This document shows positions 23,152 to 64,000 of a stretch of 64,000 bases of DNA, in pieces; within the stretch, counting starts at the first letter, position 1, and each line of letters starts with the position of its first letter. Both the position numbers and the translations under genes were made by a program. Below the pieces are notes generated by a model. That model saw nothing but the letters and a program-made list of their open reading frames with translations, did not search any database and was not told the DNA's origin. Source of the DNA: Bispira polyomma (lineage: Eukaryota). The stretch covers positions 22,568,001 through 22,632,000 of the forward strand of contig OZ287753.1 in the NCBI GenBank assembly GCA_965649765.1. The letters run 5' to 3'.

Positions 23152-23184
23152 GTAGGTTATCATACAGTAATGAAATAAAATAGG

Positions 23185-28889: not shown

Positions 28890-29016
28890 GTACTTCTTTA
28901 GAAAAGCCTCAGATGAGTTCGACTCGGGCGTGGTTTACGAAGAAGTTTTAGAAGATTCCGATCTGTTGCCTCTCTGTGAGGGTAAGGTCATCGGCAAAGT
29001 GGAGAAGGTGGAGTGA
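28890..29016 (+). CDS. Axin: Axin last coding exon, C-terminal half of DIX domain ([41 protein letters not shown])
   Basis: ttccag|G acceptor; TGA at 29014-29016; matches the Axin C-terminus YYFKKVSDEFDCGVVFEEV...KIIGKVEKVD. Confidence 0.97.
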
Positions 29017-30002
29017 AGCGAGAGGACAAGTACTCGCTGCAAACTTACTATGGATACAACACAAGGAATCATCCGGGTGGAATATGTGACAAAGAAGGAT
29101 CCGGTTCAAATTCGGTGATCTTCGCACACAATTGAATTCTGGTTATTTTGTGTGACAACAGAAAGGAGTTTTTCCCCTTACACTGGATAGACAGAAAATG
29201 GAATGACAGCAAGGAATTTACTGGATAGATGGGTACACAACGTGTGTACAAGTGTTCAGTGTGTACAGTAAATATATGTGTAAAGTGTATGGGCTGGAGT
29301 TTTCAGATAAGAGGATAAATTCGTGTGAGATTCTTGTGAATAGAGCTACTAACAGACCAATGCATTGTGGATAAAGGTTTGGGAGATAATTGTGCGCAGA
29401 TGGTCCCAAAAATGGCCTAGGGATTTGTGGTAAATTAACTGTAGATTCTTCTTTTGGGTTTGAAATTATAGCAGGGGTTTTGATGAAATGAAAGTAGAAT
29501 GTTATTATAACAGGGTAGTTTGGGGGGGAAAAAATTTGTTAAAAAAAAAAAAGAAAAAAAAAAGAAGAGTTTAAAATTCTTTCATGTATTACAAAATAAA
29601 GAAATACCGAGACTGCTGTTTGAACATTGGAGTGTGTAGAAATGATATTATTGTAAGGCCCTTTGAAAGTAGGGGGGAAAAAAGTCACCCCAAGTGTGTG
29701 TTTGCTCTAATGTATATTGAATATAATATTAAAAGTCAACAGCAGGCTTTGTATGGCTGATTGGGTCCATCTAGCTACTGTTACTAGTATGGGTTCAGGT
29801 GTAGGGTTTCACAAGCCACTCTGATACTTAAGATCAGAGTCATTCTTGTGGTGGTTACTAAAATAATGGCTGTTTGGATAAGAGTCAGAATCTAAAGAAT
29901 GTCAGATATATTGTTTTATCAACCGTCCCCGTCCCCCCTCCTTTCAACAACCCCCCTACCCCCTCTAATACTAAGGAACATTCTGGTGATCATTGCTCAC
30001 TA

Positions 30003-30040
<38 letters not shown>

Positions 30041-30089
30041 ATAAATAATAACATAACTCCATAGCTAAGAGATCCTATGAAGTATCATG

Positions 30090-30340
30090 TGGCCTGTATT
30101 TTCCGAAATATCTCAAGCTCACAAGTCGACTACAGCTCAAATCTAAATTCCCTACTTAACTCTCAGACTTATATAAAATCTGACTGCATATTTAAATTCA
30201 GCACTGAAAGCTCTATTGCAATGAATGGTCACAAGTACAGGTTTATATTCCATGTGTACAAGGATTTTGAGCGAGATTCCCTTCATTTGAGTTCGGTCTT
30301 TTGAGTTTAAGTCTTGAGTTTCTCTGGAGCATACCGAGCC
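30090..30340. mobile_element. Diverged copy of the CTG-TSD MITE family, in the putative Axin 3'UTR
   Basis: ggcctgtattt... start and ...ataccgagccctg end; shared interior aaatctgact...aatggtcacaagta.aggtta. Confidence 0.7.
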
Positions 30341-33300
30341 CTGAATAGCAATATTATTTGTAACAATACTGTAAATCCCTGTGGAGACGTGGTGTTTTCT
30401 GAAAGATATGACCATATTTGCTCTCTGGGCCTTTTATCTTTTTTGTTGTGTTTTGACTGTACCCAGACTTTTGGATATATAATTGAAAAATGCCTCTCTA
30501 TCTTAAATGTATTTCTTGCTTAATAATGGAACCCGTCAGAGATATTTTGGCCTTGGGCCTGTTTTTTCTTTTTCTTTAGAAGATTACAAAGTACAACAGT
30601 TTTGTCATCTTTCTAAACTTTTACCTAAGTACATATAAAGCTGTGTACATGTATTTTCATTATTTTGTGATCCAGTTAAAATACAAATTTTGGCAAAGCT
30701 ATTCATAAGTTAAATATTTGGATTTTAAAAGATCAACAGCAGGTTAATAGAGGTTATGTTGAACTGTAGCTCTTTAGAAATTAAAAAAAATAAGGATTAT
30801 AGTGATAAATTTAGAAATTGAAACTTCAGATTTTGAGTTAATTAACAATATTAACCTAAAGACACAAATACATGTATAATAAATCCTTTCAAGAAACTTT
30901 TAAATCTTATGAAATAAAAATATTAGTATTTTATACAAGTTTGAAAACATTGCCTCTGTTGAATTCTTAGCAAACAGTTGTGAAAATTAAATCCAGTATT
31001 TTCTTCCTGCAGTAAAACTGTTGTTTATTGTGGTACATACATTTTTTTTTTGTTTTACTAATTCTAAAGGCCTGAATGTTATTTTTTTTGGCTGAAGAGA
31101 GTGTGGTATAAGGTTCAAACTTTACAAAGCAACTACTAAGAACCAGTCAGTGAGTTATAAGTGTGTGTGTAGTATGTCTGTGTTTGGAGGTATTTTCCAA
31201 GACAATAGCGGCCTGGCTTTTGTGTGCAGGTTTCTGTGATGTGTGCTAGTCTGCTCAGGAGGAGCTGTTTGTTCATGGATATACCCCCTCTCTTTGTAAC
31301 TGGAGCTTGTTTTGATTTTTAGTCAAAATAAAATGCCCCACTGAGGTCTGAACATTATCCAGGAAGTTTAAGACATTGTGATTGAATCAGGAGAATTTTT
31401 TTTTGTGGGGGTGGTGGGGCCACAGGTGATTTGGGGCCACAGGGTGTTAAATAAAGAAGGAAAATGCAACATGGGACATTAACTTTTTTAACCTACTGGC
31501 CAACAGTGAATAACATATATCATACCAGGCATCTAAAATACTTATAGCCCATCCCCAAAAATTTATTGACTCCAATGATTAAAGAGATAGATCTTGTTTG
31601 CAAGTTGAAGTTGCTCTCCTGACCTTCAAAACTCTGGGCTCAGTGGCTGAATCTTTTACACTGGTACATGAAAACTACTGTCCCTGGGCCGTCAGGCCTC
31701 TGTTAATGTTGAATGGAAAAGAAAACTAAGGTGTTTTTTGGTGTGTGGACGTTGTTTTTTGTTGTGTGGACCTATATCTTGGTTCAATAATTACCCAGGT
31801 GCCCATAGGATCTTGTTCAAAGTATTTGGGAGTTGAAATTTGATTTGGGGGGTATTTTGTATGCCTGTGAATTAAGTTACTTAGGGTACTAAATAAACAA
31901 GAAGATACCTCTATTATCTAAAGTTCTATTATCCTAATGTTTAATTCTACAATGAACATAATTTCCATCAACCAAATTTACACTTTCCAATTGTTTTATG
32001 TAATAAACTGTTTGTTCTATACGATGAGCCTTCTCTTATCCACACAAATTAATCTTGCTTTCTCTCTCAACATGTTCAGATAATAAAGAGATTCTACTGT
32101 GTATTCTAACACGGGTTGATGGATTCCCCATAAAGTAGTAGTACTAGTATAGGGAATCTCTCTACATACGCTTCCTGTTATGTACACATAGTCTTTGTAT
32201 TGGTTTGATTTTGGGGCCAATTGGCCATTGTCGAAAGCTTCCTCTTAAACATTGAACAACCAAAACGAGGTGAACAATTTTAAACATTTCTTTTTGGCAC
32301 ATTGACAATGAAAAAAACCCATTAAATAACAAAAGGGACTCTTCATTCCGTTGGTGAAATAAATTGTAAAATACCAAGAAAGAAAAAGTTTTATACCACC
32401 AAAAAAACCCTAGCCCCATCTGACGGTGATTTGTCACTTTTCTGCAGTCATATGTACATATAACTTGTGTGATGTGTGGCCTTAAATCTGAGGCCTGAGC
32501 CAAACACTCTCAGGTTACTAAAGGAAGACTTCAAAGTGGGAGCAGCAGGCTATTTCAGCACTTGGTATTGTGGTGGAGTCTTTGATGCGAGCTAGTTTTC
32601 TCTTTTGAGCCAATGTTTTGTGTGCCGTTTTTTTTTTTTTTTTGGTATCTCTAGGTATTTTTTGTTCATTCATTTTGAACAACCCTGCATTATTAAATAG
32701 ATCAAAAGTGAACTGACTTGGACAAAAAAGCTTGCTGGTATATTGGCTTGAAAAGAATCAATTTGAAAACACGATCCTGTGTGTGGGTGACTGTGTGTAT
32801 GTTTTTGGAATGTTTTTGAAGTGTTCAGACAACCTGAATTGGTGCTTGAAACAAATTGGTTTAATGGGCAATTAATGTTTAAAACACAGAGCAGAGGTTG
32901 GTAAAAAAAAAAATTAAATAAAAACAAAAAAACGGAAACTGAATTTGATGATGGAGGAAAGAAAATTATTTACATTTGTTCTTTCTAACAAGATGTTATT
33001 AAATATTTTCTGACAAAGAAATATCATGTAAAATGGAAAAAGGCCGAGGAACGAGACTCCCAACATAGCTTTTGATAAAAAAAGAACTAAGGCAATCTGC
33101 CACCAATATAATACCACTGTATGTTGTGTGTGTGTGTTATGGTGGTTGGTCTGATATTGTGTGCCTCTACAATGAAAGTACTCCTGTGAAGTAGATATAA
33201 TAAAAAACACACAGAAAAAGGCAAGAGATTACAAATATATGTAGAGAACTGAAGTGGAGTGTATAAACATCAAACAGCCAGCTTTATACAAAAACCAAGT

Positions 33301-34534
33301 GGCCTATGTTCACCCACCGCAAACTTATATACGTGGCTTCTAGTTTAACTCGGGTATATATACTTTGAGGGGGCACAAACATTCCAGAACACTTTAATCC
33401 AAGCAAATTTAAAACCAAGGAGGGACCTTATGAAGTCTGGGACCTTCTAAGTGTTGTCTGGTGTTGGTTGTAGGTGGTATTTTTACGATCTTGTGGTAGT
33501 TTAGGTGGAATTTGCTGGTAACACATTTTCCGGGCCTTATGGTAGTTCTCCTTGCACAAAGAGTTTTCAGTTCTTTTCATCAGCCTTTTCAAGTGTTCTT
33601 CATATTTCTGTGTCTGTGATGTTTTGGGCTTTTTTTTGTTCATGCCCCCCCCCCCCCCCCCCCCCCCACATTTGTATAAAAGCCTCCTGTGTTGTCTGTA
33701 TGTGTGTGCTTATTTATACCATAGGCTCCAAAAACTTTGGTGAAAGATTCCACACTATTCACTGTATTCAGTTCCTACTCAAACTCTATAAAAGATTATT
33801 AATATTATACAGGATGGTTTGACCAAATGATGAGTGCACTACTACTGTTGGTATTGAGTATCCAAAGGTATCTATATTTAAGAATCCCTGCAAAAGTTTG
33901 TCAAAGTGATTAAAGTTATCTCGGTTGACTTTACGGTGGGGTTTAAGTCGAAGAAGGTTAAAATGACATTGAGTGAAAACTTAAAAATGAAAAACCAATA
34001 GGAGAATGGAGAGTTGGATGTGTGTTGGCATTCCTTCTTTTCAAGTTCTCTCTTGCATCTATTGGTTAGCTTGATGTATTATTCACACGTTCTACTAGAT
34101 TTGGCCAAAGAAGTGGGGAAAAAAAATGAAGAACTTTTCAAAAGAAGCCCAGGTTTTGTTGTAGTTTTTTGGGGGAAGGAAACATTGTATAGTGTATACT
34201 GCAATAACTCTTGTAATGAAGTTGGTTATACTATAGGGGATTTGGGCTTTTGCAGGAGAGATGCAGATTTGCTAAAACCAGTTATAATAAGTCGAATTTC
34301 TCCTTGACTTGAATCTATTTTATGGGCCCGAAATTCAAAAAAAAAAAAACTTCTTTCAAATAACTTAGAAGTTACCCATAAGTCAAACCAACTCCTGCTA
34401 TACATGGAACTATATTGAAAGGTACAAAGCAAAGCTATAATATGGTGACCTAATGTGTTTTGTTTCAGCAAGTTTTCATAAGTACTACCTTTTTGTACCC
34501 TGGCTGCGTGTTAAATCAGAGTTATGTCAATATA

Positions 34535-35068
34535 TACAGCGGAACCTCTGTTGTCCACACTTCTGTTACTTCGAATATTTGATTTATATTAACTCAATTC
34601 CACTTTTAAATTTTTAAAATTTATCTCTTGTTTTATACTAAGTTATAAAAGCTGGGATGATTAGTTGAGAGACTGATGATGCATCAGTCGACTGTGACGA
34701 TTATAGCGATACATCGAGTCTGGGTTGTGAGACTCATTCATGCATATTTTATTTTCAAATAGGGGGCAGATTTTAGTATTCAACGGACAAAAAATTGTAA
34801 CTTTGTACGTGTGACACTTAAATTTGAAGGTATATTGTCGGAAAGCATAAAAAATAGTCGAGTTTTATGTATCAGCAATTTATTTAGTTGATTTGTTTTT
34901 TTTGATGCATCAATCGAGTCTGATTTGGCGATTATTGATGCAAACAAAATAACATAGTTTAACTCGTAGCTCTACTAAGTTACATCTTGATTATTCCCCC
35001 CCTCCCTCACTAAGTTATCTCTTGATCATTTCCCCCTCACATGTTTGGATAATTGAGATTTTACTGTA
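34535..35068. mobile_element. TACAG-type MITE interrupted by a nested ~325-bp element (about 34648-34974)
   Basis: tacagcggaacctc start and gagattttactgta end; tactaagtta is repeated on both sides of a gatgcatc/atcgagtc-containing insert. Confidence 0.6.
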
Positions 35069-35895
35069 TATATATGGTTCTCGTAAACCAGTGTATGTGC
35101 AGGTATTTGAGGTTTTTTGCGAAAGAGACACAGATATGTAATTGTTTTTAGAACCAAGTAAAGGTGTGGTAACCTTTCCAAGGGGAGTGATTTTAATGGT
35201 ACAGGTGAACCTAAAATTAGATGTTTACCTTGGTGTCTCTGTAAGTCTTAGTGAATGGTGTTGTACAATCTTAAACTTTTAGAGCTTAACGAAGTAAAGA
35301 AGAATTTTACCAAAGGTTGTTTTTAATTATTACTGATGAATGAATGATATTTGTGTAAATGTAGGAAAAATGTGATAAACTTGTGTTCAGCCAAACCCTG
35401 TCTGAGAAAATGAGTTTTTATAAAACAAAAAAAAAATTAAATAGTAAATACCTGTAAGTTACAAACAGATATTATTAAAGACAATTATAATGGAAGTAAG
35501 AAAAAAATAATACAGATAAAAGATATATGACCACGAAGTAGATATTGAAAGAGTGTATATGTTTGAAAAGAAGGATATTATGTTGTGTGGTGATGCTATA
35601 GAGGACGCCCTTATTCCATAAGTATTGTCTATTCATGTGTTCTAAGACATTTAGTGTTTAGGTAATGTGGACACAGTGGTAAAGGAGGAAGACTTGACTT
35701 CTTCACTTTAAACCAGTGTGTGTGTGTGTCTAATAAATACAGTTTCCTGAATAAAAGAGAGAAAAAATAAAAAACGTAAACTAGTCATTTACTTAGGAAA
35801 CTTGCTTGTTATTGTGGTTATATTTTGTGTAAATACCATTGTTTTTCATCTGTATATTATTATTTTTTTCACAAGGAAGAAGAAAGTTGTAAAAG

Positions 35896-35901
35896 AATAA
35901 A
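35896..35901 (+). promoter_or_regulatory. Candidate distal polyadenylation signal of Axin
   Basis: AATAAA followed by a GU/U-rich tract (gtgatgtttttatt). Further AATAAA at about 35750 and 35766. Sequence becomes TE-dense shortly downstream. Confidence 0.4.
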
Positions 35902-36639
35902 GTTTTAATACAAAGATTATGTGATGTTTTTATTATGGCAAAACTTTGCCTAAAAAAAACCTTCAACTTACAGTTCCTGTACTTTTAGCCTTTACCTACC
36001 TTAACGACTTGTTTGCTGATTCATCATACTGCTACAAATCTGGAATGAAATACAATATTCCCTGCCAAATTTTGTACATTGTCAATACATATGTACATAC
36101 ACAGCCAAAATATTCCCCCGAATCCCTGTTCTGTTATGAATGAACTAAACTAGGCCTTTTGTTTTTTTGTACCCCCAAATATTTCAGGTCAGGTTGATTT
36201 TTCACAAAAAGTTGTGTGCAAATTAGAAAAAAACATTTGTGTATCTTTTGATCTCAGCCTAATTTTTAAATCAATATCCACATAATTCCATGATAAGGAC
36301 CTTACTTAGAGATTGAATCGGAGTTAAGCTTCAGATTACGATGTAAATCTGAGGGGCTTTGTGAACCTTTACACCCTTCAACAACTTGAATCTTAAAATT
36401 TTGAGACTTTGGCATAGATGATCAATACCAATATATTGAAAAAAGCTTTAATGTCAGTACAGATATATTTTAAAACCAACTGGTGAGCTTAAAGTTATAT
36501 TCAAGATTTCTAATTGGCAGCCATTTTAAAAGTTTTCCAGCTGTTAAGTTGTAACAGCTGGATAATGTTACCCACAGCTATTCATGGATGTTTTCCAAAC
36601 TACACTTGGGCTATCGCTCTGAAGTTAGACTTTAGGTAG

Positions 36640-38690
36640 GGTCATACCTTCACATACTATAGGGCCATTTACTCCCGATTTAAAGAACTTTTGTGAACTA
36701 GAATAATGGCATAAACTGGTAAAATCGCCAAGAACGGGAGTTGGAGCTGGAAATTTTGGACATGTATGGGCGGCTGTATAAGCCCATCTGGTGAGAATGG
36801 GAGACGAGATGTGTGGTCAGGGCTTAAACTGCTCAGAACTTGTATAATCTGGACAAGACTGGTGTAATCTGGAGCAAACGTTGCATAAACGTGATCAACT
36901 ACTTTGATCTGGTCTGGCAAGATCTGGTAAAAACTGGGCATATATATTCTGTGCGCACACTTTATATTCTGTGCAAACAACAAACTATCAGTACAGATTA
37001 TAAGCCGTTGGCATGACTTAATAAACAGTTTATAATTCGTGCTCTCAAATTACAAACTATGTGCACGGTTTATAATCTGTGCTCACAAATTATAAACTGT
37101 GAGCACAGTTTATTAAATATTGCACACAGTTTATAAACCATACGCACAGTTTGTAATCTGAGCACAAATTAATCTGGATAAAAATGTTTACACTGTCCCC
37201 TCCAGGGCTCCATAGGTTACAGATAGGTACTAATTAGTATCATCATTCACTGGGCAATTGAGATTTGCAATAGCTTAGTCTGTCCTCAATTTGACTTTTG
37301 AATGAATGACCTCATTTAGATATTTCCGGAAATATTTGTCAGCTGTTTCCCTTTTCACATATTCATAGTACGAAAATTAATGCCCACTCCATATGTGGGT
37401 ATAGCTGATTGGTATTGGTGATCATAAAATCACAAAAACCTCAAGGGGAATATTTAAAGAATTACGAAGTTTCAGAAGTACATATATTACAGTTATGGAA
37501 TGTAAAGTAAATACCTCTTTGGATAGATGAAGTTTGGTTAAAATTAGCATTAAAGCAACAGACAACAAGTTCAAAGTCTAGAAAAATTTTTGTAAATCTA
37601 AATGTTTGTTTTCCCCTTTTGCAGTAAAAAAAAAAAACAAACTAATAATAATAATACTAAATAACTAAACAATAACTGAAAACAATAAACCTTACAGTTG
37701 AAAATAACACCTCCGTCAGTTGTAAAAAAAAAAATGTTCATAAAAGTTAGGGTGGTAGTTCGTAAATGTTGGAGATTTCCCGTCAAGCAATGAATTCCCC
37801 CTCTATAGTTATACCTCCACACATAAAGTTTGCACCAATCCCCAGGATAAATATTAATTACAATATCTCTTCTTCTAAATAATGTATTGCTATTCATTTG
37901 AGGAAGAGATATATTTTATGGTAGTTAATAAAATTGGGAAGGGAAGGGAAGGGGGGGGGGGGGCAGGGACACTGTAATAAAAGCCAGTGCATTCATTCAG
38001 TGCTGCCGTTTGAAGTCTAAAGCTTTTATGTGTCACAGGAAAAAGGACACAATTACTTCTGTCCACTAGGCCTTATTTCCAGGGATAGTTCAAAGTGGAC
38101 GAATTCATCACACTGGCCAGTTAGTTGTTTTTTGGCTCGTCAGCTGAATATATATATAGATATCTCCACCAAGAAGGCTATGTTTTCACGCCCATTTGTT
38201 GGTTTGTTATGGGGCGTTCACATTGTCCAAGTTCACGCCCCCGCATCACCCCGGCATTGCCGTTTACTCAAGACCTGAAGAACTTGGCTAAACTTGTCTG
38301 ATCGGGAGAGAAAAGGCAGGAAAATGTTCATTTGCATTGGCATATATTAGCATCCCCCGTTTATGACCCGTTTCAGCCCCGTTTATGCCCAGGTTATGTT
38401 ACGTTTTCTCAAGTTCTCCAGTTCTGGCCAGATCACACAAGTTCTAAGCAGTTTCGGCCCCGTTTATACAAGTTCTGAGTAGATCAACTCCCGTTCACGC
38501 ACCGGCAGCCCATTCTCTCAAGTTCTCTCAAGATGTGTTTTCAGAGTCGTCCTCCCAGGGAAGCTTTTAACATGTTCAAAATTTCCTACTGTAGCTCCCG
38601 TTCTTGCCGATTGCCCCAGTTCTACCCTTGTTTAAGCCCAATTCTCAGACATTTGTTCAAGTTCACACACGTTCTCAGAACGGGGGAGAA
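36640..38690. mobile_element. Two inverted, related arms (about 36640-36945 and 38270-38690) of a palindromic DNA element family
   Basis: aagaacgggag...gaaattttggacatgt vs acatgttcaaaatttcc...ctcccgttctt; aaactgctcagaacttg vs caagttctaagcagttt. Confidence 0.65.
36945..37214. mobile_element. MITE fragment with short subrepeats (tttataatctgtgctcacaa / ttataaactgtgagcac), ending ...gggctccata
   Basis: Direct and inverted ~20-bp subunits. Confidence 0.55.
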
Positions 38691-39780
38691 AGAGGACAGA
38701 GAACGTGGACAGTGTGAACGCTGCTTTAGCGGTATTAGGATTGCGCTCCACTGAGTGCTCTTGTTTTAAAAATGTTATGATGTTTTGATACAGGGAGTTT
38801 ATTATCATTCCTTTTATGGTCATTGATTGGCCTTGGATGACGTGCCACCTTTGAACATCAGTAAGGCATACCTTATGAGTTCCGGTAATTTTCTCCCCCC
38901 ACCCCCCCCACCCCCCCAAACTGCTCTCAGAACCTCCGGCAATCAACGTTAATGTGCTAAATTGTTACAAATCTCTGGCTGTGTCTTTGATTTACCAATT
39001 GCTCTGATGTCCCCCTTTTTATGTAAGGATCTTCACAAACACACACAGGAGCCGGACGGAAAATATAAAAAGAATAATAACCGCAAAAACGGCGGCCTGG
39101 CTTTTGTTGTGCTTTATGCCATGTCACTACATCACAGGCAAGTAATGGGGAAGATGACAAGAAAAAGAATAATGGCTGATTTTTATACCCTCACATCCAT
39201 TTGATGGGGGAACTTAGGGGGGGGGGAGGAGTTAGTGAAACTGCATCCCTCGCTCCGACATGGATATCTTTGGTTATTTCAAGGAAAAAATGAACAGAAC
39301 TGAAACATCAAAAGCCCTTTGAGTGAAAGGGGCAGGCGTAGCAAGGGGACTTTTATCTGAGTGGCAAGCGGAAGTGATTTATTCACTGATTACTTGCTTT
39401 CATCCTGTTTGGGGCAATGTGTGAGAAATCAATGATATTTCTGGAGTGTGGGGTGATGTGAGGAGGGTAGTGAATTGTAGTGTCCAATCTCAGTGTCAAC
39501 TGGCCACATGTAAATAATTTTTTCAAAAAACCTTAACTCACCTGATACAATAGTAAAACTCCTCTAGTTTACAAACTTCTCTATTTTTGTTAATCCAATT
39601 AGCAAAATGTATGTACAGTACCAACCCCTGTTATATGAACTTCTGTTATCTGCATATTTAGTTTTAGTAACTTAATTTTTCCCTCCCAAATATAAACTTT
39701 CCTGTTGTTTTTTAACTAAATATATACCTCTCCTATGTACAGGAACAGAGTATTACCCTCCAAGGATGTTTGTATAATTA

Positions 39781-40040
39781 CCAAATAGGAAAATTCGCAC
39801 GCGCTGCATTCCTGTCGGGCTACAGTTGAATGGAACAAGCTTCCTCAGAATGTCTAATAGCATACAATCCTTGGTCTCAGATGCCAACTTAAAACATACC
39901 TCTTCAAACTGGCATCCTTCGTTTCTTATCTGGTTGCATGCTTTTTTGTAACAACCTTTTTATCTGGCCTTGGACCGTCCCTTTTTGCATATAAGCGCCT
40001 TGGAGGATGTTCGGCGCTCTAAAAATTCTTCAGTTATATT
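39781..40040 (+). mobile_element. L2/CR1 LINE 3' fragment inserted into a TACAGT MITE (39615-40055)
   Basis: cttaaaacatacctcttcaaact (LKTYLFK-like) and aagcgccttgg...ggcgctctaaaaatt tail; tataat on both sides. Confidence 0.6.
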
Positions 40041-41872
40041 ATAATGGAGGTTTCTTATAACTTATTACATCTGTCAGTATAAAATCATACATTAACACTT
40101 TAAGAGAGTTTTACCCTGGAAAGTCATAAATAGCTAAAAGGGTATTGTTAAAAACATAAGCAAGCATAAATGTTCTCTTTATACTAATATATATATATGA
40201 ACTCTGTTACTGAGATAGATGAAGGAACTGAAGGTGATTTTTTGAATATATTGTAAACTGTTAACAGAAATTTTTTATTACTTTTTGTTATTAGTAGGGG
40301 AAAAAATTATTATTATTAAGGTATAAAAAATAACCTAGAGATGACAAACCTACTATTAATCTTGGTTATCAGTGATTTAGTTTATAGATTTCAGTCAAAC
40401 TTGTCATTATTGTTTTCATTATTGTCCTTGTTTTTTTTGTATTGTAACCATGTGATCCAATAAAAATATTAAAAAAAAAAAAAAAAAATAAATAAAATAA
40501 AGGGTATTGTTCCGCATCGCTAGTGGCGGGGTTGAAGACAACTTCCCATATGCTACAGTTAGTGGGAAATATGTGTGTCATGGTCTGAACTCATTTTGAC
40601 CTTAGAAATAAGACAACCTTAAAAGGATGGTTATTTCTATGAACTACTGAGTGAAATGTCAAGGTCTGGCTTCAATTTGATATTGGCCATTTGGTTCTTG
40701 TTTCATGACCTTGAAATTACACTATTTTGTTCCGATATTAGAAAGTTTGTAAGATAGAATAAATAGACCTTTTAGTACAAAACAATTGCAAAAAGAATAG
40801 TTATGAAATTACATTCATAAAACCAAATATTTGGATAGTTCTAGTAGAATAGAAGTCTGAATAACAGATATTCTGCTGTATATTTGACCTTTATTTTGAT
40901 AGACAACAATAATAAGGTTACAATGCTTAGTTGTAGATTGCAAGGTCAAAATCGCTAATTGTGAGACAACATAATTAGAAGGGCAAGGGGATATGTTTCA
41001 TTGGGTCACAGATATTTAACAGCTTTGTTCTTTGAATTGTCAAATGCACAACAATCGCTGAACTAAAGGAGAAACAAATTTTATATTAAAAAAATAGGGT
41101 TTGGTAGGCTTGTAAACGACACATTTTTGCATAATTTGACTGCAATCACTTTGCCGACAGACTGTCTGCTTGAAAGTGACCCTTGTACCAACTGCTCCCA
41201 TGACACCGACTGGTTTTAGACATGTCCCTGTGATGTGTCCTCGGCTACTGTGCAGTAAAATTTGTAAAGACTTTCAAGTGCAGCAGTGAACCGGAAAGTT
41301 TGGCCAAGGTAACAGTGATGAGGGTAGCCTTCTGTGTCAGATGTATAAAACCCCAGTTCCAATTATCAAAGCCCTCTAAATCTGACCAGTGTCTGAATAC
41401 AGCTTGGAAAAATAGCAGTTTGCTGTGGACACAGAAGAACACTGGCATCAGATACTCACATGTCCATGGAATATGTCTGCAAATTGTAATACAAGTTATC
41501 AGGTAATGATGGGAAAAAAGTTTGTCTATGACCCCGGGGGAAATGGTCCTTTTTATTTATGTTTTTAACCATTGTTTTGTACATTGGTTTGTCTGTTGTC
41601 AAGATTACACAAACACTACTAAACCAAGTTGCTGGAGGGATGGGACATGAGCCAAGGAGGAATCTTTTAAATTTTGGTTAGCAGGGTGGGATCCAGGGAA
41701 TTTTTTGTCAGCTGATGAAGTAGCCGACATATTGCAGCGAGTTCGGTCTTTATTTTTTCTCCCTTTCTTGGCCAAATATTTTTTTTATACCTGTATTGTA
41801 TTTTATTGTAGATTTTAAAATTTTCTTACCATGCAAATTCAGAACCCATAAACCATTAATCAATATCATAAC

Positions 41873-42540
41873 AACTAGAATTGGGCCAACTCAGAGGGGG
41901 CCATCAGTAATGGGAGCAATCAGTAATGGCGCATTTTGTAGTGATCTGTGTATGTGTGTGAATTTCCACCCCCAAATGCAAATTGTCTGTCTACATCGGA
42001 GATTTGATAAAACATGTATTTGCTATAGATCTCCTTTCAATGAGTGAAAATAGTTTCATGATTATAAACATCATGGTCATCATGACACTACAGTGACATT
42101 CTGTCAAAGAAACTGATGTAGGTATTTACCTAATATACTTACATAAAAATTTTGGTGATGATTTCTGCAATAGTTCTCTTTCAAATCTTCCATCGGTTTA
42201 GGCTGTTTTCACAATTTCGCCAATGGCGGCCATCTTGTTTTTGAAACGAGCCCAAAATCAATACCAGGCAAGCTACCGATCTTATACAACTCCATATAAT
42301 ATTTAGTGATATCTTCAATACTTCTACTTAAAATGAGCGGAAACAGCTTTCACCTTTCATCGATGGCGGCCATCTTGTTTTTTTTTAAACTGGCCCAAAG
42401 TCAATACCAAGCATGCTACTGACCTAATACATCTCCAAGTAAAATTTGGTGATGATATCTGCAATATTTTTTCTTTAACTGAACGCAAATCACAGTTCCT
42501 GTACTGCAGACATCAGCTGCCACCATTCACAAAGTTCATA
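41873..42540 (+). mobile_element. Helentron-like element with two ~140-bp internal repeats (atggcggccatcttgttttt)
   Basis: aactaga start; repeats at 42223 and 42363. Confidence 0.55.
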
Positions 42541-43611
42541 TGTTCATCCCTAATTGTCTACTGGACATGGATGTCATCCCCCAATGACCGTTATGAATGT
42601 TACAAGGATTTAAACTAAGGATTTTTGCTCTGTTCAGGCTTCTGGAGACCAAAACTGTTCTTTGTGAGTTGCGTTGATTTAAACTTTGAGACTGGGTCAA
42701 ATTACCCACTGCTAACTTAATGGGATCATTTTTGTATCTTCACTTGCAGAGATGTCGAACATCTAGCGAAGATGTCTTGGTGCGTAGTGAATTTTTAGTG
42801 TTCACTTTCTCATCATGACTATAACTGATATAACTATTTAAACCACAAAGCTGCCTCATTTGTAAACATAATGGATATGTTATCAAAAGAATCCTGTTTT
42901 TTAGATTCAGATGACATGTTTGTGTTGCATTTTCAATCCAGTCATTTGCATCGAAGCAAAAGTTTAGTCTGGAAAATGTAACGTTAGACAGAGTGAAAGT
43001 GTGTTTTATTTGAGGTAAAGTTTCAGTTGATTTGCTGCATGTATATTTTTCAGTTTTAATAAATCTGATGTGTTCATGGATAAATGTATAGAAGCATAAT
43101 AGCCAGAGATATCTCCCTGGTAGCAACTTGTGCTGTAATTCATCACTTTACTTTAGTCATAACTGGTTGGTACCGCAAAGGTTTTTTAGAACCACTGAGC
43201 CCCCCTAAAAGCCATCCTTTTCAGTGATCGGCCCTATTAAGAGACTGCATATCTGGTGATATGTACATTTTAAGTGTAATGTCATGCGAGTAAAAGTCAA
43301 CAACCGAGGCATTCAGATAACCTTTTGACCTGTCAACTTTGACCTTTGACAAATAGTGCCACACACACACACTTACAAGTTGTTCCTCAAACGACTTGGG
43401 AAGAACAAGTATTGGCTAAAGTGCAGAATTCTTCAACTGGACGCAATCTTGAAATATTGTCCGTTAATATGTGCAGATTTATTGGTAGACTGGCACATTA
43501 ACTATCACAGAATTCAGGTTGTGGGTTCTCATATCCACTATCTCAAGGTTAGTATTAAGTGTTATCCTTAAGGTTTAATGTTCTAAGACAAAACATTTAA
43601 AAAACCCCAAC

Positions 43612-44128
43612 ATGTACATATTCCTACTTGTGATATATGCATGGTTAGAGAATTCTGCAATTATTCTTGAGCCTTGTTCTGACAACCGCAGGTTCCTCAA
43701 ATAAAGGAGGCATTTTAGTGCATGTATAAACAACTGGAACATATGAATTTGAGAGAGTGAAAGTACAGTAGAACCTCAACTATTCAAACTTCTGTTATCT
43801 GAATATTCAATTTTATGAATCCATTTTCACTCTTTCCAAATTAGGTTTTCCTATTGTTTTGAACTAAAATGCCTCTTCTATTTTATAAACTTTCTATTAT
43901 CTGAACAAACTCCTGCTCTCATAACATGTTCGGATAATAGAGGTTATCCTATAAATCGATAGATTTGAGTCCTTGTAGAACAAAAGCCAACATACTAGAG
44001 AGGATGAAGTTTGATTTTATATCTTACATAAAAGACTGCAACATCTTTAAGACAACAACAACACATAACCACTGAGGTTCCGCATCCATACTGCAGTAGA
44101 TTTGAGATAGTTTGTCAAATCTATTAAG
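43612..44128 (+). repeat. Direct duplication, copy 1 (517 bp)
   Basis: Near-identical to 44910-45424. Confidence 0.95.
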
Positions 44129-44909
44129 AACAACTTCACTGGGGCGTTTAGCCGAGTCCGACTTTGAGTTGGAATCTAATTTAGCAGGTTTTGGCTTTGA
44201 TGAGCTCTTCGACTTGTGAGTCGACTTCCCCCCCGAAGATTTTGCAGACTTTGCGGGATCTTTCTTACTAGTCGTAGAGTGCTTTTCAAACTCGTCCATT
44301 CTAGTTGCTAGGCAACTCATCTGCGTCAATAACAAAGCCAGAGATTCCTGAACCGTTGGGACAATGGGAGTATTTTCAAACAATGTTCTGATCAGTATCT
44401 TCCCCCAGTAAAGCATCTTCCATTGACTTAACTTGTGCTTTTTGGTTATATTTAAGATACCTTGCTTTTACAATATCTGATTGTTCATCCGTGAAAGACA
44501 AGCAAATTTTGCAAACTCCCGCTATGTCTGGTCCACAAAGATCATATCTACCCTCATATCTGCATCTAATGCAAGCATCATGCTGATCCCAGGCCAAAAG
44601 CCAGTGTTTACAAATACAGCATTGTCTTTTTACAACATTAGAAGTATCATCCGCCATAATATCAATAAAAAAACGAAAATTCCTTAAAATTTTTCCAATA
44701 TGACTGTGTACACTAAGACGGTCAAAAACATTGTGAAGATTCAAATGAGGTCACCTGACCTTCTTAATTGGGGGTTAATTAGTACACCACTGAACCACAG
44801 GTATTAAGGTAGTATGATAGCTTTTTTCAGCTATTTAACCGTGGTTAAGTTGACGGCCATCAACTAAAGCGTTTGTTAGGACGAGGTAAGTGTATTTTAT
44901 GCAATAAAA
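44129..44909 (-). mobile_element. 5' fragment of a DIRS-type (tyrosine-recombinase) retrotransposon: frameshifted gag/ORF1 with N-terminal Cys/His finger
   Basis: ATG at 44657: MADD...CCICKH...DQHDACIRC...C...CKIC (C-x2-C...D-x-H-x2-C-x2-C...C-x2-C); continues after a frameshift into a predicted coiled-coil and Ser/Lys-rich segment, then is truncated at copy 1. Confidence 0.65.
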
Positions 44910-45424
44910 ATGTACATACTCCTACTTGTGATATATGCATGGTTAGAGAATTCTGCAATTATTCTTGAGCCTTGTTCTGACAACCGCAGGTTCCTCAAAT
45001 AAAGGAGGTATTTTAGTACACGTATAAACAAGTGGAACATATGAATTTGAGAGAGTGAAAGTACAGTAGAACCTCAACTATTCAAACTTCTGTTATCTGA
45101 ATATTCAATTTTATGAATCCATTTTCACTCTTTCCAAATTAGGTTTTCCTATTGTTTTGAACTAAAATGCCTCTTCTATTTTATAAACTTTCTATTATCT
45201 GAACAAACTCCTGCTCTCATAACATGTTCGGATAAGAGGTTATCCTATATATCGATAGATTTGAGTCCTTGTAGAACAAAAGCCAACATACTAGAGAGGA
45301 TGAAGTTTGATTTTAAATCTTACATAAAAGACTGCAACATCTTTAAGACAACAACAACACATAACCACTGAGGTTCCGCATCCATACGGCAGTAGATTTG
45401 AGATAGTTTGTCAAATCTATTAAG
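44910..45424 (+). repeat. Direct duplication, copy 2 (515 bp)
   Basis: Near-identical to 43612-44128; a few substitutions and one 2-bp deletion. Confidence 0.95.
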
Positions 45425-45529
45425 TGGTAGGTCAAATTAGTGACTTAGTGAACAAAGTAAAGGTGAATAAATGACTAGGACCACTTGGTAATTGCTATGA
45501 AGTTTGCCTATTAAGAACGTGTCTCACTT

Positions 45530-46068
45530 TCAAGCAATACAGAATACTCTAGCTCGTATCATCACTCGTACGTCAAAGTGTTCCCCCACATAACTCCTGT
45601 TCGCCAAGATTTACACTAGCTTCCTGTTAAATTTTGATGTTCGTTCAAAACTGCCACACTGGTCTAAAAGTCTCTCAATACAGGCCTCCCAAAATACTTC
45701 CGCCCATATTCCACCCTTTAATCTCAGTAAGTCAATACCAGTTGTGGTAATCCTAACAAATTTTTCATCAATGTTCCCACCTTTGATTGCCTCATCCACA
45801 AATCAAAAGCCGCTTTTAATCATGGTTTCTTATAAGCTACACCCAAGTTATGGAATGACCTACCACAAGATATTAGGTGCTCATCTTCTCTTTCAACCTT
45901 TAGAAGCAAGCTTAAGAACTATCTCTATTAAAAAGTTTATCCCACCTGAATTGGTCTGACCACCATCGACTCCCTTTCTGGCAACGACAATTTTTTCTGT
46001 CCACCTACGCCTTAGAATCCGCTAGTACGGAGACTAAGTGCCATTAAGGAGTTGATTAGATTAGATTA
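45530..46068 (+). mobile_element. L2-clade LINE 3' fragment (decayed ORF2 C-terminus)
   Basis: Translates with disruptions to IQNTLARIITR...HITPVRQDLH*LPV...FKTATLV*KSLNTGLPKY; ends in an (attag)n tail. Confidence 0.85.
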
Positions 46069-46915
46069 CTACAGTTAGAGTAAGTACAAAATAAAAATGG
46101 CAAGCTGAGCAGTATTCTGTACAGGGGCACGGACAGACTGACAAATGGACTGACACGGATATAGCCCGTTTCTATACCCTCGTAATATACCTTAAAATGA
46201 TGATAACAGGACAACATGTTGATAGAACAGCTCTATATCCTTTGTATCATAAACTAAGCTCATTAACCTCATCTCCAGATTAATTTCATTTCATTAAAAC
46301 AACAGATTAATTTCATTTGATTAAAACAACAGATTGATTTCATTTAAATTAATTTTTTATTATAATTCTCGAGTTATATTTTAGTAATGATAACATTTTG
46401 TGGTCAATGCGTGAGACACCAACAATCTGACACAGGTTACAAGCCATTATAATACTAGCATAGAACTGGGCTGGGTTTACTTAATACAACAGAAGAGCAG
46501 TTGCCATATTCTTGAAACATTTCAAGCTCAAAACAAATTTAAAGTCCATATATCTCTGGTTAGAGTAAAGTTAAGTGAAATCTGAATGCATTGAATTCAG
46601 CGCTAAACGCCTTTACATGAGTTAAGTTTTACCTTGACTTTCTTTCAAAAATACTGGCCCAGGTCTGCCAATCTCTGGCTAGACAAAGTAAAGTAAAACA
46701 TGACTACATATTTAAGTTCAGCACTCTAAGCTCTTCTTAAATAAATGATTACAAGTATAGGTTATTTCCATATACAGGAACTTACTTCCATACATTTTAA
46801 TACATAGTCCAGACTCTAAATATAGTCAGATTTTACTAGCAAGAAAAATGGATACCTTAGATTTGAGCTTAAGTCCGAGTTGAGCTTGAGATTTGTTAAA
46901 GAATCTGGCCATTAT

Positions 46916-47395
46916 TATGAGAAGCTACAAACTAGAGAATCCAGCCATTAGGATTTACAAACTAGAGAATCCAGCAATTAGGAGTTACAAACTAAAGAAT
47001 TTAGCCATTACGAGCTACAAACTAGAGAATCCAGCCATTATGAGTTACAAACTAGAGAATCCAGCCATTAGGAGCTACAAACTAGAGAATCCAGCCATTA
47101 TAAGTTACAAACTAGAGAATCCAGCAATTAGGAGTTACAGACTAGAGAATCCAGCCATTATGAGTTACAAACTAGAGAATCCAGCCATTATGAGCTACAA
47201 ATTAGAGAATCCAGCCATTAGGAGCTACAAACTCGAGAATCCAGCCATTATAGAAATTAACAAACTAGAGAATCCAGCCATTATGAGTTACAAACTAGAG
47301 AATCCAGCCGTTATGAGTTACAAACTAGAGAATCCAGCCATTAGGAGTTACAAACTAGATAATTCAGCCATTATAGAAATTACAAACTACAGCTA
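46916..47395. repeat. 30-bp minisatellite (agttacaaactagagaatccagccattatg), about 16 copies
   Basis: Direct tandem units; produces the SYKLENPAIM/R repeat ORF 46893-47396. Confidence 0.95.
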
Positions 47396-47609
47396 AGTAC
47401 TCAGTGCACAAAAAGTGAAAATTAACTAAAACAACAAAACAGCTCACAAATTCAGAAATTTGTTATGAAAAAAGTAACATTTACAACTTGTTCACAAAAG
47501 AAAGGTTCTACTTGGAAGTACTATATGGAATAATATTATAAAACTACAGCCTTTTAAGGATCAGACTCATTCATTCACCCAAGAATGTTCGGATATTTCT
47601 ATAGAATTT

Positions 47610-47845
47610 TTACCTCTGCTAAGGAGATTATGTTTTCATTGTGTCTGTTGGGGGTTTGTTTTTTTATCACCAGGATTATACAAATACCACTGATCAGATT
47701 TACAGGAAATTCGGCGAAGCAATGGGCCAAGGAAGAATCCATTAAATTTTGGAGCAGAACCAAATATAAGGACAGATCCAGGAGGTTTTTTCTGACCTTT
47801 TCACACTATGGAGCCTTGGTGGAGAGAGGTATGCACTCTACAGAT
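47610..47845 (+). mobile_element. ttacctc(t)gc(t)aaggag-type non-autonomous Helentron-like element; degenerate relative at about 41560-41710
   Basis: ttacctctgctaaggagattatgttttc start; ccaaggaagaatccattaaattttgg; ttggtggagagaggtatgcactct end. Confidence 0.6.
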
Positions 47846-48744
47846 TACAGAGTGTCCTTCTTGTTACTGGTTTTTTCTTAGTCAACACAAACTTAGGCTA
47901 GAATCCAGTTTGCTGGTACCAATGTGACGTCACAAATTTCACCTTAAAAATTTAAGAAAAGGTTTTGGGGGCTTTACCTGCAAGTTTTGCTAAATATTAT
48001 ACACTATTTCTTTTTAACAACAGAATATCTATTAATGCTTTATTTTATCTTATTGGTGTAGCAGTTGCTTTAAAAAAAAGACAATTAAAAATGAACATTT
48101 TTTCCCACATTTGAAAAGTGTTTGTAAACAACCGTAAATGGTACTGGTAAAGTGCATTTGGCCCAAAGCTGAATACCAAAACGTGTGCTATTATATCACT
48201 GTAAGGGAAGCCATTTCAGAAGGCATTAATAATGTTTAGGTAACCTATTTCAATATACACCTTATTATAAATAATACATGTGGTAACAAACACTTGATAT
48301 TCTGTAGGTTTAAAAGTTACTCAAAACTACCACTACATATGCACATTATACAGAATATAAAACTGAATTATTGAAAGATTAAAATAAATAATGCTAACAA
48401 AAGTGAATTATATTACACAGCTATACATATACACAAATAATCTATCAATTCAGACATTGAGAAATATCACAGGTCTTTATTCTTTATACATTTGCAACTA
48501 AATCTTCCACAAAAGCATCTGAAAAAATACTTATATAAGAATAGCATGTATCAATCACACGCACACAGGTACGTTATAGCTAATAGAACGTCTACATTTC
48601 TTTGCAATGTTCACACAGATACAGTATGTATACCAGTATTGTATACCTCAATATCAAAGATAGTTCATGCATCAACTTTTGTTGTATTGCCTATACGGAA
48701 AGTTGACAAACTTTTGTTTAGTGTATATAGACATATTCAGTGTT

Positions 48745-49030
48745 AAAAGTCGCACCATTTAATTTGGAAATAATGGTGACAGAACTGCTGAAATCCATTG
48801 AGAAATAAGTTTTAAGTTGTGCCTTAAAATTAAAAAAAAAAATCTCTCTAAATTTAGCAATAATATTAACATACACCCATGTGCATATTTGGTATTAAAA
48901 TTTGCACCATTTAATTTGGAAATAATGATGACAGCACTGCTGAAATCTGTTAAGGAATAAGAAAGTTATGGCTTGAAATTGCTTAAAAATCTATCTCTAA
49001 ATTGATGTATTTCAGCAACATTATTAACGT
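48745..49030. repeat. Two-copy ~150-bp tandem duplication
   Basis: gcaccatttaatttggaaataatg.tgacag.actgctgaaatc occurs twice. Confidence 0.8.
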
Positions 49031-49178
49031 ACTGCTATGCCGCACTCAGGTGCATGAGAATGATATTTTAAAGAAATTTGCCACTAATTTCATATAAATA
49101 CACAATTCTAAGTACAGTTATTTAAAAAGCTTTAACATTCAGTCACTTGTTTGTCCCGATTAAGACTCTTATGATCTC

Positions 49179-49184
49179 TTTATT
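49179..49184 (-). promoter_or_regulatory. Candidate polyadenylation signal of CEP112
   Basis: AATAAA on the - strand about 650 nt after the stop; other candidates at about 48476 and 48039. Confidence 0.3.
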
Positions 49185-49835
49185 TACAATATTACTACTG
49201 TTTTTCACAAATCTAAAAATAAAAAGTATCAGTTAAGTGTCTCCGAGAAATGACAAGTTTAAAACATTGAGTCTTACTACATCCATTTTCCATTATTTCT
49301 ACAGGGATCACAAGTAAGGCCTCAGAGTATATTACATGCTCAATGTTTCAAATTTGGATGCAAAAATAAAGTAAAACATCATTACTAATGAAAGCTGTAT
49401 GTATACCCCACATATTACGTCTAAAACAAGCTTTTGAACACAAGACTCAAAGAGAAAAGTTTTCTCAAACCGATTTTTCAGCAGTGGTCGAGTTCTTTGG
49501 ACTCAATGGGACCCAATTGCCATTACTGACTTTTTAATAACAAATTTCCTGTAGCATAATTAGAAATGACATTTTAACAAGGTACCTCAGAAAACATCAG
49601 TATGTATATATTCAGACATACACATTTTTAATACATACATATGTTCTCTAAATTTGGGGTAAACAATACACATCCTCACAACTTCACCCAATAGTAGGGC
49701 CAATTACAATGAACTTTCCATATGACATTAATTCCTGAGATATGGCCCAAGATAAGTTTTTGTTTAATACAAAGGTCACAACTGTCTAAGGTCACTGGTG
49801 GCTACCCCCCTCGTGCCCCCACCTTTTGGGGGAGT

Positions 49836-50027
49836 CTAGCCAACCTCTTTAAGAGCAGACTCCATAGTTTTGGATGAGTGTGTGGAGGAGAAGGTGTTTG
49901 TTAGGCTGTGTGGGTGGGTGGGGTAGAGTTTACTGGTAGGGTAATCCAACTCGTCCTGTAGTAAGACACACCGAGACTGTAGTGACGCCACCTGTGATTT
50001 GAGAGAACTAATTGTCTCCTCCAGCTC
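49836..50027 (-). CDS. CEP112: CEP112 (CCDC46) last coding exon (ELEETISSLKSQVASLQSRCVLLQDEL...KEVG*)
   Basis: tttttgtacag|GAG acceptor; 63 aa plus TAG; matches the human CEP112 C-terminus ELEDTISSLKSQVNFLQKRASILQEEL (recalled sequence). Confidence 0.88.
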   Translation of the reverse strand, partial: ELEETISSLKSQVASLQSRCVLLQDELDYPTSKLYPTHPHSLTNTFSSTHSSKTMESALKEVG

Positions 50028-50029
50028 CT

Positions 50030-50590
50030 GTACAAAAAGTACATGGAATGTTAACAGTATAAAACGTATATACAATATTAACAGTATAAAATGTACATAC
50101 AAGATTAACAGTGTAAAACCAAATGCAAATGCTTCAGCTCCTAACAAGTATACCTGTCAAAGTACATGTAACGTTAACAGTATAACACCAAAAGCACATG
50201 CTCTCAGCTCCTGTCCAAGTACATTTAACGTTAACAGTATAATATCAAAGGCAACCATCTCCTGTCAAAGTATATGCAACGTTAACAGTATAATATCAAA
50301 GGCAACCAGCTCCTGTCAAAGTATATATAACGTTAACAGTACTAAATCAAAGGCAACCAGCTAATGTCAAAGAACATGTAACATTAACAATATAAAACCA
50401 AAGGCAAATGCTCCAAGCTCCCGTAAAAATACATCATTGGTATACAAAATACAGTAATATATAACATTAACAATGTAAAACAGAAACTGCCTGTCCTGGG
50501 TCTTGTGCAGAACATGTATTTAAAAGAAAGAAATTAGGAATATAAAACATTAACAATATAAAATCAAAGGTGCATGCCCTAGCACCTGTA
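50030..50590. repeat. Degenerate ~51-bp minisatellite at the 3' end of the last CEP112 intron
   Basis: Repeated acgttaacagtataatatcaaaggcaaccagctcctgtcaaagta. Confidence 0.85.
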
Positions 50591-50624
50591 AGTACATCAC
50601 TGGAAAACAGAACATGGTTATAAT

Positions 50625-50856
50625 TTTTTTTCAGTTGAATATCGCTTTCAACAACTGTGTGTTATTTCGCGACGGGTAGATTATTGCTGGTGGAAATAAT
50701 GTGTGAACAGATACTTAAGGTTTTCTGCATTGTAACCTGGCAGCCTTCAGCAAGTCTTCTACTGCCAACTTGCCCACAAACATCCCGAGGTCGACATTTC
50801 AACCCATGACTGCAAAAGTGGTTGGCAAGAGTGTTATCTTAACACCACTCAGGCCT
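50625..50856 (-). mobile_element. Degenerate tRNA-derived SINE
   Basis: On the - strand: ggcctgagtggtgttaag box A, gggttgaaatg box-B-like; body and tail resemble the 9983 SINE. Confidence 0.6.
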
Positions 50857-51045
50857 AAATATGTTTTACGGTTTCCTGTTGTTTGATACACAAATGCCTC
50901 GATATTATGAATCTTGTATTATTCGAACAATATCGTACTCTCTAAACATAATAGAGCCTTCACTGTATTACAATAGATAATCTATTACTATTAACAAACA
51001 TCACCTGTCTGTATTGCACTACCTGTTTGTATTATAGTACATTAC

Positions 51046-51111
51046 CTGTCTGACTGTACTGGACAGCAGTCCTTTCATCTTCTGCTCATACTGACTTCTA
51101 AGCTGGGTCAG
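51046..51111 (-). CDS. CEP112: CEP112 penultimate coding exon (LTQLRSQYEQKMKGLLSSTVRQ)
   Basis: tccacag|CTG and CAG|gtaatg; 66 nt, phase 0/0; matches human ITYIRQEYETKLKGLMPASLRQ, which directly precedes ELEDTISS. Confidence 0.88.
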
Positions 51112-61110: not shown

Positions 61111-61167
61111 AATAAAATGAGAGTAATTGAAAAAAATATCAAGCCAAGTTTGTTTACACGGTGACTG

Positions 61168-63976: not shown

Positions 63977-64000
63977 AAACAAGATAAGAGTGGCCCATGG

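Follow-up and report, generated by a model that had tools for sequence, protein, structure and literature searches.

The genome of Bispira polyomma places the Wnt-pathway gene Axin directly beside the centrosome gene CEP112, which raises the question of whether this adjacency dates to before the protostome-deuterostome split and, if so, what has kept the two genes together. The DNA analyzed here (the window) is a stretch of 64,000 nucleotides, which a sequence-only reading had described as holding convergent Axin and CEP112 genes. This layout and a non-chordate origin were confirmed; the animal is a protostome, probably a sabellid annelid. Axin (plus strand, stop at 29016) and CEP112 (minus strand, stop at 49836) are tail-to-tail neighbors with 20,819 bp from stop to stop and no host gene detected in between, and the two start codons, at the far ends of the pair, are separated by approx. 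149 kb (Table 1). The orientation is thus 3'-3' and not the 5'-5' arrangement with a short spacer of co-regulated head-to-head pairs. The two genes are non-paralogous, as they have no domain in common.

Table 1. Features of the Axin-CEP112 locus in the window (coordinates are window positions unless a contig is given)
Feature	Position	Strand	Remarks
Cluster of 11 TCF/LEF-like CTTTGAT sites, Axin intron	603..5896		1.4 expected; 2150-4750 single-copy
Axin internal exon	7909..8049	+	tblastn-matched stretch
Axin frame with beta-catenin-binding motif	15172..16035	+	PF08833; motif in 15172-16032
Axin internal exon	19829..19939	+	matched stretch
Axin internal exon	21254..21463	+	holds segment 27/32 identical to L057
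Axin proline-rich exon	22135..22344	+	matched by P0121 only
Axin DIX domain, first half	23000..23152	+	domain match within 22913-23152
Cluster of 8 TCF/LEF-like sites, last Axin intron	24104..27634		1.0 expected
Final Axin coding exon with the second half of DIX	28890..29016	+	preceded by pyrimidine-rich AG acceptor; TGA at 29014-29016
Gap between stop codons	29017..49835		20,819 bp; host gene not detected; 19% repeat-masked
CEP112 last coding exon	49836..50027	−	63 aa + TAG; phase 0; AG/GT ends
CEP112 penultimate coding exon	51046..51111	−	22 aa; phase 0; AG/GT ends
Part of inferred CEP112 intron	51112..64000	−	37,567 bp in all; runs on to C6:22,656,678
Dispersed element in large CEP112 intron	54275..61116		main pieces 90-95% identical to a C9 stretch

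The identities assigned to the two genes from sequence likewise held. Axin carries an RGS domain (on an exon 3.2 kb left of the window), the beta-catenin-binding motif and a C-terminal DIX domain, in this order; its last exon encodes the C-terminal half of the DIX domain (E 6.6e-10), and the peptide of this exon has one match in the genome. When the 63-aa last exon of CEP112 was queried alone, no homologue was found among 36 candidates at E ≤ 10, and the homology queries that followed this null result used an upstream CEP112 exon as well as tblastn. In tblastn, named CEP112 proteins from mollusc, brachiopod and macaque align colinearly with the minus strand, from C6:22,713,509 to the two exons in the window, which jointly make up the 85-aa peptide originally taken for CEP112. 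The last exon was 64-72% identical across 28-29 aa in five of the six queries listed, and the 22-aa exon gave a weak match (E 0.06-0.38). The gene encodes an N-terminal DUF4485 followed by a long coiled coil; we assign it to CEP112 because of 23 colinear exon candidates and because the only DUF4485 match of the genome falls within it. Splicing of the two window exons to those upstream, across the 37.6-kb intron, is predicted from exon order, phase and homology. Fused Axin domains were found in none of 15 long CEP112 models.

The gap contains 412 stop-free frames that reach 30 aa or more. Their 148 longest members gave no Pfam family above the cut-off; two of them had sub-threshold matches, both in simple or tandem repeats, and the whole window showed no Rfam match. 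A gene consisting only of short or unconserved exons could still lie within the gap. High-copy repeats, viewed by placing three contig sets on 33000-52500, occur near 38.2-38.9 kb and 43.4-46.0 kb. Overall, however, the gap is repeat-poor (nine of 60 background stretches were equally low), and Axin control elements may therefore extend into it.

We compared the arrangement with that in other animals. In a metagenome contig from a distant animal (L057), the two genes are likewise tail-to-tail, 7.5 kb apart, with identities to the window of 52% (Axin) and 42% (CEP112) over matched exons. This contig, the only one of 21 metagenome loci with enough downstream DNA (the other 20 were too short or transcript-like), encodes fast-evolving proteins and was placed outside molluscs and deuterostomes, grouping with the window at a support of only 22/29. 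In Lingula, Axin (XP_013402825/6) and CEP112 (XP_013402833) share one scaffold of 479,975 bp. Molluscs showed a different picture. Among nine species with sizes for both contigs (equal-sized contigs being taken as identical; Mytilus, with a different assembly, and Pinctada, with Axin lacking a contig, were excluded), five had the genes on different contigs (Crassostrea virginica, Ostrea edulis, Saccostrea cucullata, Batillaria and Candidula). Three of these five have scaffolds < 2 Mb, so that scaffold breaks can hide linkage. The four species with both genes on the same contig include Patella caerulea (70 locus tags apart), Sinanodonta (1,490 locus tags apart) and Biomphalaria pfeifferi (2.1-Mb scaffold). 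According to file 4 of PMC8851819, the scallop neighbors of CEP112 (T09425) are T09424 on one side and NAA20 (T09426) on the other.

Human AXIN2 and CEP112 presumably lie on one strand, with the CEP112 3' end towards AXIN2 as in the window, whereas the worm pair is convergent. In the accessible part of Eichenlaub and Ettwiller (2011; PMC3206014), ccdc46 (CEP112) flanks vertebrate axin2; that part does not carry the linkage to invertebrates. As the pair occurs in L057, both genes share a small Lingula scaffold and ccdc46 flanks vertebrate axin2, the adjacency very probably predates the protostome-deuterostome split. The earlier proposal of an ancient linkage thus remains likely as to its origin; its bilaterian-wide extent is not supported, since molluscs separated the genes.

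Could the vertebrate and spiralian adjacencies instead have arisen independently, on a shared ancestral chromosome? The window orientation differs from the layout that we take for human, and the 50 longest frames per flank, within 200 kb on each side of the pair, included a TALE homeobox frame and an enoyl-CoA hydratase but none of the vertebrate neighbors RGS9, APOH and PRKCA. Scanning many windows will also yield some chance pairs. Moreover, matched Axin and CEP112 pairs came from no invertebrate deuterostome (amphioxus and ambulacrarians included) and from no cnidarian or arthropod, and CEP112 was found in Patiria, Antedon, Apostichopus, Ciona, Acropora and two jellyfish without Axin from the same assembly. 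On the other hand, simple arithmetic gives a chance of approx. 0.2% that two given genes of a linkage group of approx. 1,000 genes are adjacent, which by our own estimate is below the share of ancient neighbor pairs (595 are catalogued in PMC3514665). We therefore regard independent origin as improbable.

If the adjacency is old, enhancers of Axin within CEP112 could have held it in place, and we assessed this with a motif test confined to one family, the TCF/LEF-like CTTTGAT. In the masked Axin body, 25 sites were observed as compared to 6.3 expected (rank 1 of 2,830 comparable seven-mers), and the two intronic clusters (Table 1) represent candidate Wnt-feedback enhancers. The large CEP112 intron, the only one of 22 inferred introns > 10 kb, lies near Axin and initially showed a twofold excess (18 sites against a background of 8.8), which survived shuffles and tandem-repeat masking. 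Masked repeats of the dispersed type account for nine of the 18, the element listed in Table 1 holds five of the 18, and after repeat removal six sites remained against 3.7 (P = 0.17). The one tight cluster of three sites in the same intron falls inside another repeat with approx. 40 scored copies, and three of the four sites in the last CEP112 intron lie inside a tandem array. As the sites are repeat-borne and the excess falls to chance once repeats are masked, we rejected it; repeat-borne sites could nevertheless serve as control sites. Over its full length the intron is 56% repeat-masked (background median 36%), and its counterpart measures 0.2-1.5 kb in the related contigs L044, L048, L057 and L059. 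Comparison of the 21 metagenome loci, whose animals are too distant for a sensitive test, with 464 kb of the locus gave no notable non-coding match at E < 0.01, and L057 showed no non-coding similarity to the window locus. The suggestion that Axin enhancers sit in CEP112 introns, published for vertebrates (PMC3206014), is thus not supported in the worm.

An ancestral bilaterian regulatory block, in which Axin enhancers in or just beyond the 3' part of CEP112 have kept the pair since before the split and molluscs escaped by moving or replacing them, has nonetheless to be weighed. According to the part of PMC3206014 at hand, reporter-tested enhancers lie in vertebrate Ccdc46 with axin2 as the putative target, a forebrain enhancer is conserved from shark to mouse, and in fish an exon persisted with enhancer function once one copy of the gene had been lost; in the worm no such enhancers are evident. 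In the window and L057, and, we assume, in human, the CEP112 3' end points towards Axin, the largest CEP112 intron lies near Axin, and the pair is retained in L057 and probably Lingula. Against this, the intron is inflated by repeats and small in related contigs, the TCF-like excess vanishes on masking, L057 holds no conserved non-coding match, and the pairing has come apart in bivalves and loosened in the limpet. We consider such a block doubtful. Slightly less credible is its fullest form, a bilaterian-old block with a feedback inhibitor of the Wnt pathway, and not a transcription factor, at its center, whose enhancers, at the CEP112 3' end and in the gap, would have held Axin for > 500 million years through an Axin flip, with molluscs as a natural knockout.

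Axin has been reported at centrosomes, and the pair might instead have been retained through co-regulation for a shared centrosomal role. Between colorectal tumor and normal tissue, CCDC46 is one of the ten genes that show the largest change in correlation with AXIN2 (PMC7288467); spill-over from AXIN2 enhancers would explain this shift equally well. PMC3514665 describes ancient pairs under co-regulation as being for the most part head-to-head, with a short spacer in between. A shared promoter as the basis of the co-regulation envisaged for the window pair is excluded by the tail-to-tail layout and the distant start codons, and we judge retention for a shared role very improbable.

We favor, with about even confidence, an ancestral adjacency that persisted where local gene order was slow to change and disappeared in molluscs; in the worm, CEP112 introns appear to provide no strong tie. 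Vertebrate and spiralian adjacency would then reflect common descent, and an inversion would have flipped Axin in one lineage with the CEP112 3' end still facing it, given the strands assumed for vertebrates. Worm Axin may draw its Wnt feedback from its own intronic TCF sites, which would travel with the gene and thus make its neighbor exchangeable; enhancers of vertebrate CEP112 may have accrued later, turning an old neighborhood into a regulatory block. Adjacency over > 500 million years is the usual argument for constraint, which speaks against this explanation, and the pair is kept in the fast-evolving L057.

The pair resembles the ancestral microsyntenic pairs of Irimia et al. (2012; PMC3514665), in which unrelated genes, i.e., a developmental regulator and an intron-rich neighbor, are adjacent in distant lineages. 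That catalogue requires at least four of 11 major lineages, whereas the evidence here covers two or three phyla (adjacent in the window and L057, on the same scaffold in Lingula, adjacent in vertebrates according to PMC3206014, separated in molluscs). "Axin" does not occur in its main text, and its supplementary list may contain the pair. As in Islet-Scaper-type ancient regulatory blocks (PMC7530604), a developmental gene lies beside a large, functionally unrelated bystander in old linkage; those blocks, however, center on transcription factors with conserved elements in bystander introns, while Axin is a signaling scaffold. The supplement of that study lacks CEP112/CCDC46 and mentions AXIN in the ohnolog table alone. 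In scallop and Pacific oyster, CEP112 belongs to microsyntenic block 686 (NAA20-CRNKL1-CFAP61; Robert et al. 2022, PMC8851819), which represents a different, apparently bivalve-specific neighborhood, without Axin in the 26 of its 59 rows available. AXIN, CEP112 and CCDC46 are absent from the supplements of PMC4729200, PMC8809688, PMC9977687 and PMC11175523. In the literature searched, we found no earlier account of the pairing in invertebrates.

These data do not define a new mechanism; they describe a gene pair of an already known kind that is probably ancient. If the pair is ancestral, the neighborhood that houses vertebrate Axin2 enhancers dates to before the vertebrates. The two TCF-rich Axin introns are candidates for an annelid Wnt-responsive reporter. 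Vertebrates (with CEP112 enhancers), worms (with the pair and TCF clusters in Axin introns) and bivalves (with the pair broken) form a matched series, which allows one to ask whether regulatory blocks keep an old gene order in place or are built on top of it.

In the worm genome (1.035 Gb in 75 contigs), Axin runs from an ATG in its RGS exon to a TGA, with the domain order kept (RGS exon, beta-catenin motif, then split DIX domain), and CEP112 ends in a TAG on the opposite strand. Named CEP112 proteins align colinearly onto the latter gene, for which 23 exon candidates were tallied and in which the sole DUF4485 match of the genome is located. An 85-aa peptide translated from two minus-strand exons represents the final two exons of CEP112; as the last exon alone, used as query, found no homologue, the assignment to CEP112 is based on exons further upstream. 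The gene models thus confirmed the convergent stops (29016 and 49836) and CEP112 orthology proposed in the sequence-only reading. Its estimate of about 21 kb without a detectable intervening host gene also held: the stops are separated by 20,819 bp, in which the 148 longest of 412 frames showed no Pfam family above the cut-off and a search against Rfam gave no match. The predicted 37,567-bp CEP112 intron directly before the penultimate exon (i.e., the big intron) likewise showed no Pfam family among its 50 longest frames.

On either side of the pair, the first genes that could be recognised are a frame with a TALE homeobox, 45 kb upstream of Axin, and, 14 kb beyond the CEP112 start, an enoyl-CoA hydratase gene. 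The TALE-class homeodomain (PF05920, E 1e-12) ends a 492-aa stop-free frame, which is oriented head-to-head with Axin and may belong to the divergent TALE genes of spiralians. The enoyl-CoA hydratase exon covering profile positions 49-96 occurs in two copies 72 kb apart, which suggests a tandem duplicate. A 9.4-kb CEP112 intron holds two long opposite-strand frames, the first of which matches Mab-21_C (E 2e-12) and therefore represents a nested cGAS-like receptor gene or pseudogene.

Features of the Axin-CEP112 locus (plain numbers, window positions; C6, contig OZ287753.1; L numbers in this table, handles for worm genome stretches)
Feature	Position	Strand	Remark
Axin	C6:22,564,783 to window 29016	+	RGS exon, beta-catenin motif, DIX
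Axin introns with CTTTGAT clusters	603-5896; 24104-27634		2150-4750 is single-copy
CEP112	C6:22,713,509 to window 49836	-	colinear named proteins, 23 exon candidates, DUF4485
TALE frame	L038:274-1749 = C6:22,518,274-22,519,749	-	
Two frames in CEP112 intron	L006:6230-7858 = C6:22,668,230-22,669,858	+	first matches Mab-21_C
Enoyl-CoA hydratase exons	L012:5731-6120; L019:7468-7809; L020:1718-2155		past CEP112 5' end
High-copy repeat	43400-46000		
Frames in this repeat	44024-44467; 44376-44750	-	a cysteine-rich motif in one resembles frames of flanking retroelements; no Pfam family
Tandem array, 30 bp	46926-47389		
Tandem array, 51 bp	50155-50407		
Tandem array, 142 bp	62955-63976		also elsewhere in genome

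In a quick tree of 38 Axin proteins, the worm sequence joined the protostomes; neither the deuterostome clade (SH-aLRT 99) nor the sampled molluscs included it. The genes of the mitochondrial contig (G000:C75, stretches L065-L066; 15,503 bp), named from translations with profile support for cox1 only, are divided between the strands: one has cox1, cox2, cox3 and nad3, the other nad1, nad2, cob, nad6, atp6, nad5, nad4L and nad4. Protein genes on both strands are unusual among annelids, and the pattern matches the arrangement that PMC7889199 gives for a sabellid. The source animal is non-chordate and probably a sabellid.

Among 21 metagenome loci found with the CEP112 last exon, one, the single assembled contig L057, had 10 kb downstream. 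It carries Axin, with both DIX halves, opposite in strand to CEP112 and 7.5 kb from its stop; none of the 49 frames between them matched Pfam. Judged by sequence, L057 belongs to a distant animal: over matched exons, its Axin shares 52% and its CEP112 42% of residues with the window, and molluscs and Lingula are at least as close to the window. In a tree, it falls outside molluscs and deuterostomes.

Contig sizes and accession order were compared among annotated genomes, where both genes were found in ten species (Lingula and nine molluscs, not counting the uninformative Mytilus and Pinctada; no matched pair came from invertebrate deuterostomes, cnidarians or arthropods). In Lingula, Axin (XP_013402825/6) and CEP112 (XP_013402833) are on one 479,975-bp scaffold, with six accessions between them. 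Four molluscs keep both genes on one contig. It measures 81.6 Mb in Gigantopelta and 2.1 Mb in Biomphalaria pfeifferi; in Patella caerulea and Sinanodonta, the genes are separated by 70 and 1,490 locus tags, respectively. The five others have them on separate contigs, which are chromosome-sized in Crassostrea virginica and Ostrea edulis and scaffolds <2 Mb, hence weaker evidence, in Saccostrea cucullata, Batillaria and Candidula. By its number, the CEP112 gene of scallop falls between NAA20 and a gene with a WH1 domain (PMC8851819, rows of supplementary file 4). The adjacency proposed as possibly bilaterian-wide is not universal. Two public models are fused: in S. cucullata, Axin is preceded by a pseudouridine-synthase domain (P0246), and in B. 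pfeifferi, CEP112 is preceded by 1,372 additional residues (P0280); these may mark upstream neighbours.

The vertebrate half of the pair is already published. Human AXIN2 and CEP112 lie on the same strand. CEP112, AXIN2 and RGS9 are reported within one megabase in chicken (PMC10976558) and among the candidates of one mapping study in goose (PMC12288364). Among the papers listed by full-text searches (few subscription journals), no title or abstract opening points to this pair in invertebrates, and none of the microsynteny papers contains "axin". The main text of PMC3514665 is without Axin, while its list of 595 pairs may include this one; in the available text and supplement of PMC7530604, AXIN is confined to an ohnolog table. 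Neither gene was found by name in the supplements of PMC4729200, PMC8809688, PMC9977687 and PMC11175523, although these may use other identifiers.

An ancestral regulatory block, with Axin enhancers in CEP112 introns, draws on the vertebrate locus: a p300-bound region lies next to a mouse Ccdc46 exon, versions of this region from mouse, shark and medaka direct expression in the forebrain, axin2 is named as its putative target, and axin2 is also named as the gene that flanks a ccdc46-derived element in medaka (PMC3206014). The worm locus lends no support to such a block, which we consider less likely than not. The big intron, alone among 22 predicted CEP112 introns in exceeding 10 kb, is 56% repeat-masked, as compared to 13% of the Axin body and 19% of the gap; the median for 60 background stretches, each 10 kb long, is 36% (masking was built from 1.06 Mb only and under-counts repeats). 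Its counterpart measures 0.2, 0.5, 0.6 and 1.5 kb in the CEP112-bearing contigs L044, L048, L059 and L057, respectively. Axin is a Wnt feedback target, and CTTTGAT is the TCF/LEF core. This motif, the one family counted, occurs 25 times in the Axin body (6.3 expected), the greatest enrichment among 2,830 seven-mers of like background frequency, and gathers in two introns (11 versus 1.4 and 8 versus 1.0 expected). The big intron holds 18 (8.8 expected), or 9 after masking (3.8 expected); three of these nine form one cluster in a dispersed repeat, without which 6 remain against 3.7 (P = 0.17). No significant excess was found in the rest of CEP112, the gap or the flanks. L057 and the locus share no non-coding similarity, a comparison made little informative by their distance.

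Two genes that share a linkage group have a probability of about 0.2% of being neighbours by chance. Vertebrates have the pair, and so do two, probably three, lineages of protostomes; the adjacency therefore likely descends from the protostome-deuterostome ancestor. Independent origin is improbable, and co-regulation of the two genes is very unlikely. Of the proposal that the linkage predates this split, the age stands as likely (L057, probably Lingula, vertebrates) and universality does not. Overall, the pair is real and probably ancient. The best-supported mechanism, to which we give an even chance, is that Axin and CEP112 would be an old neighbourhood, weakly constrained in spiralians, in which Axin would keep likely Wnt-response elements inside its own gene body and the vertebrate CEP112 enhancers would be later additions.
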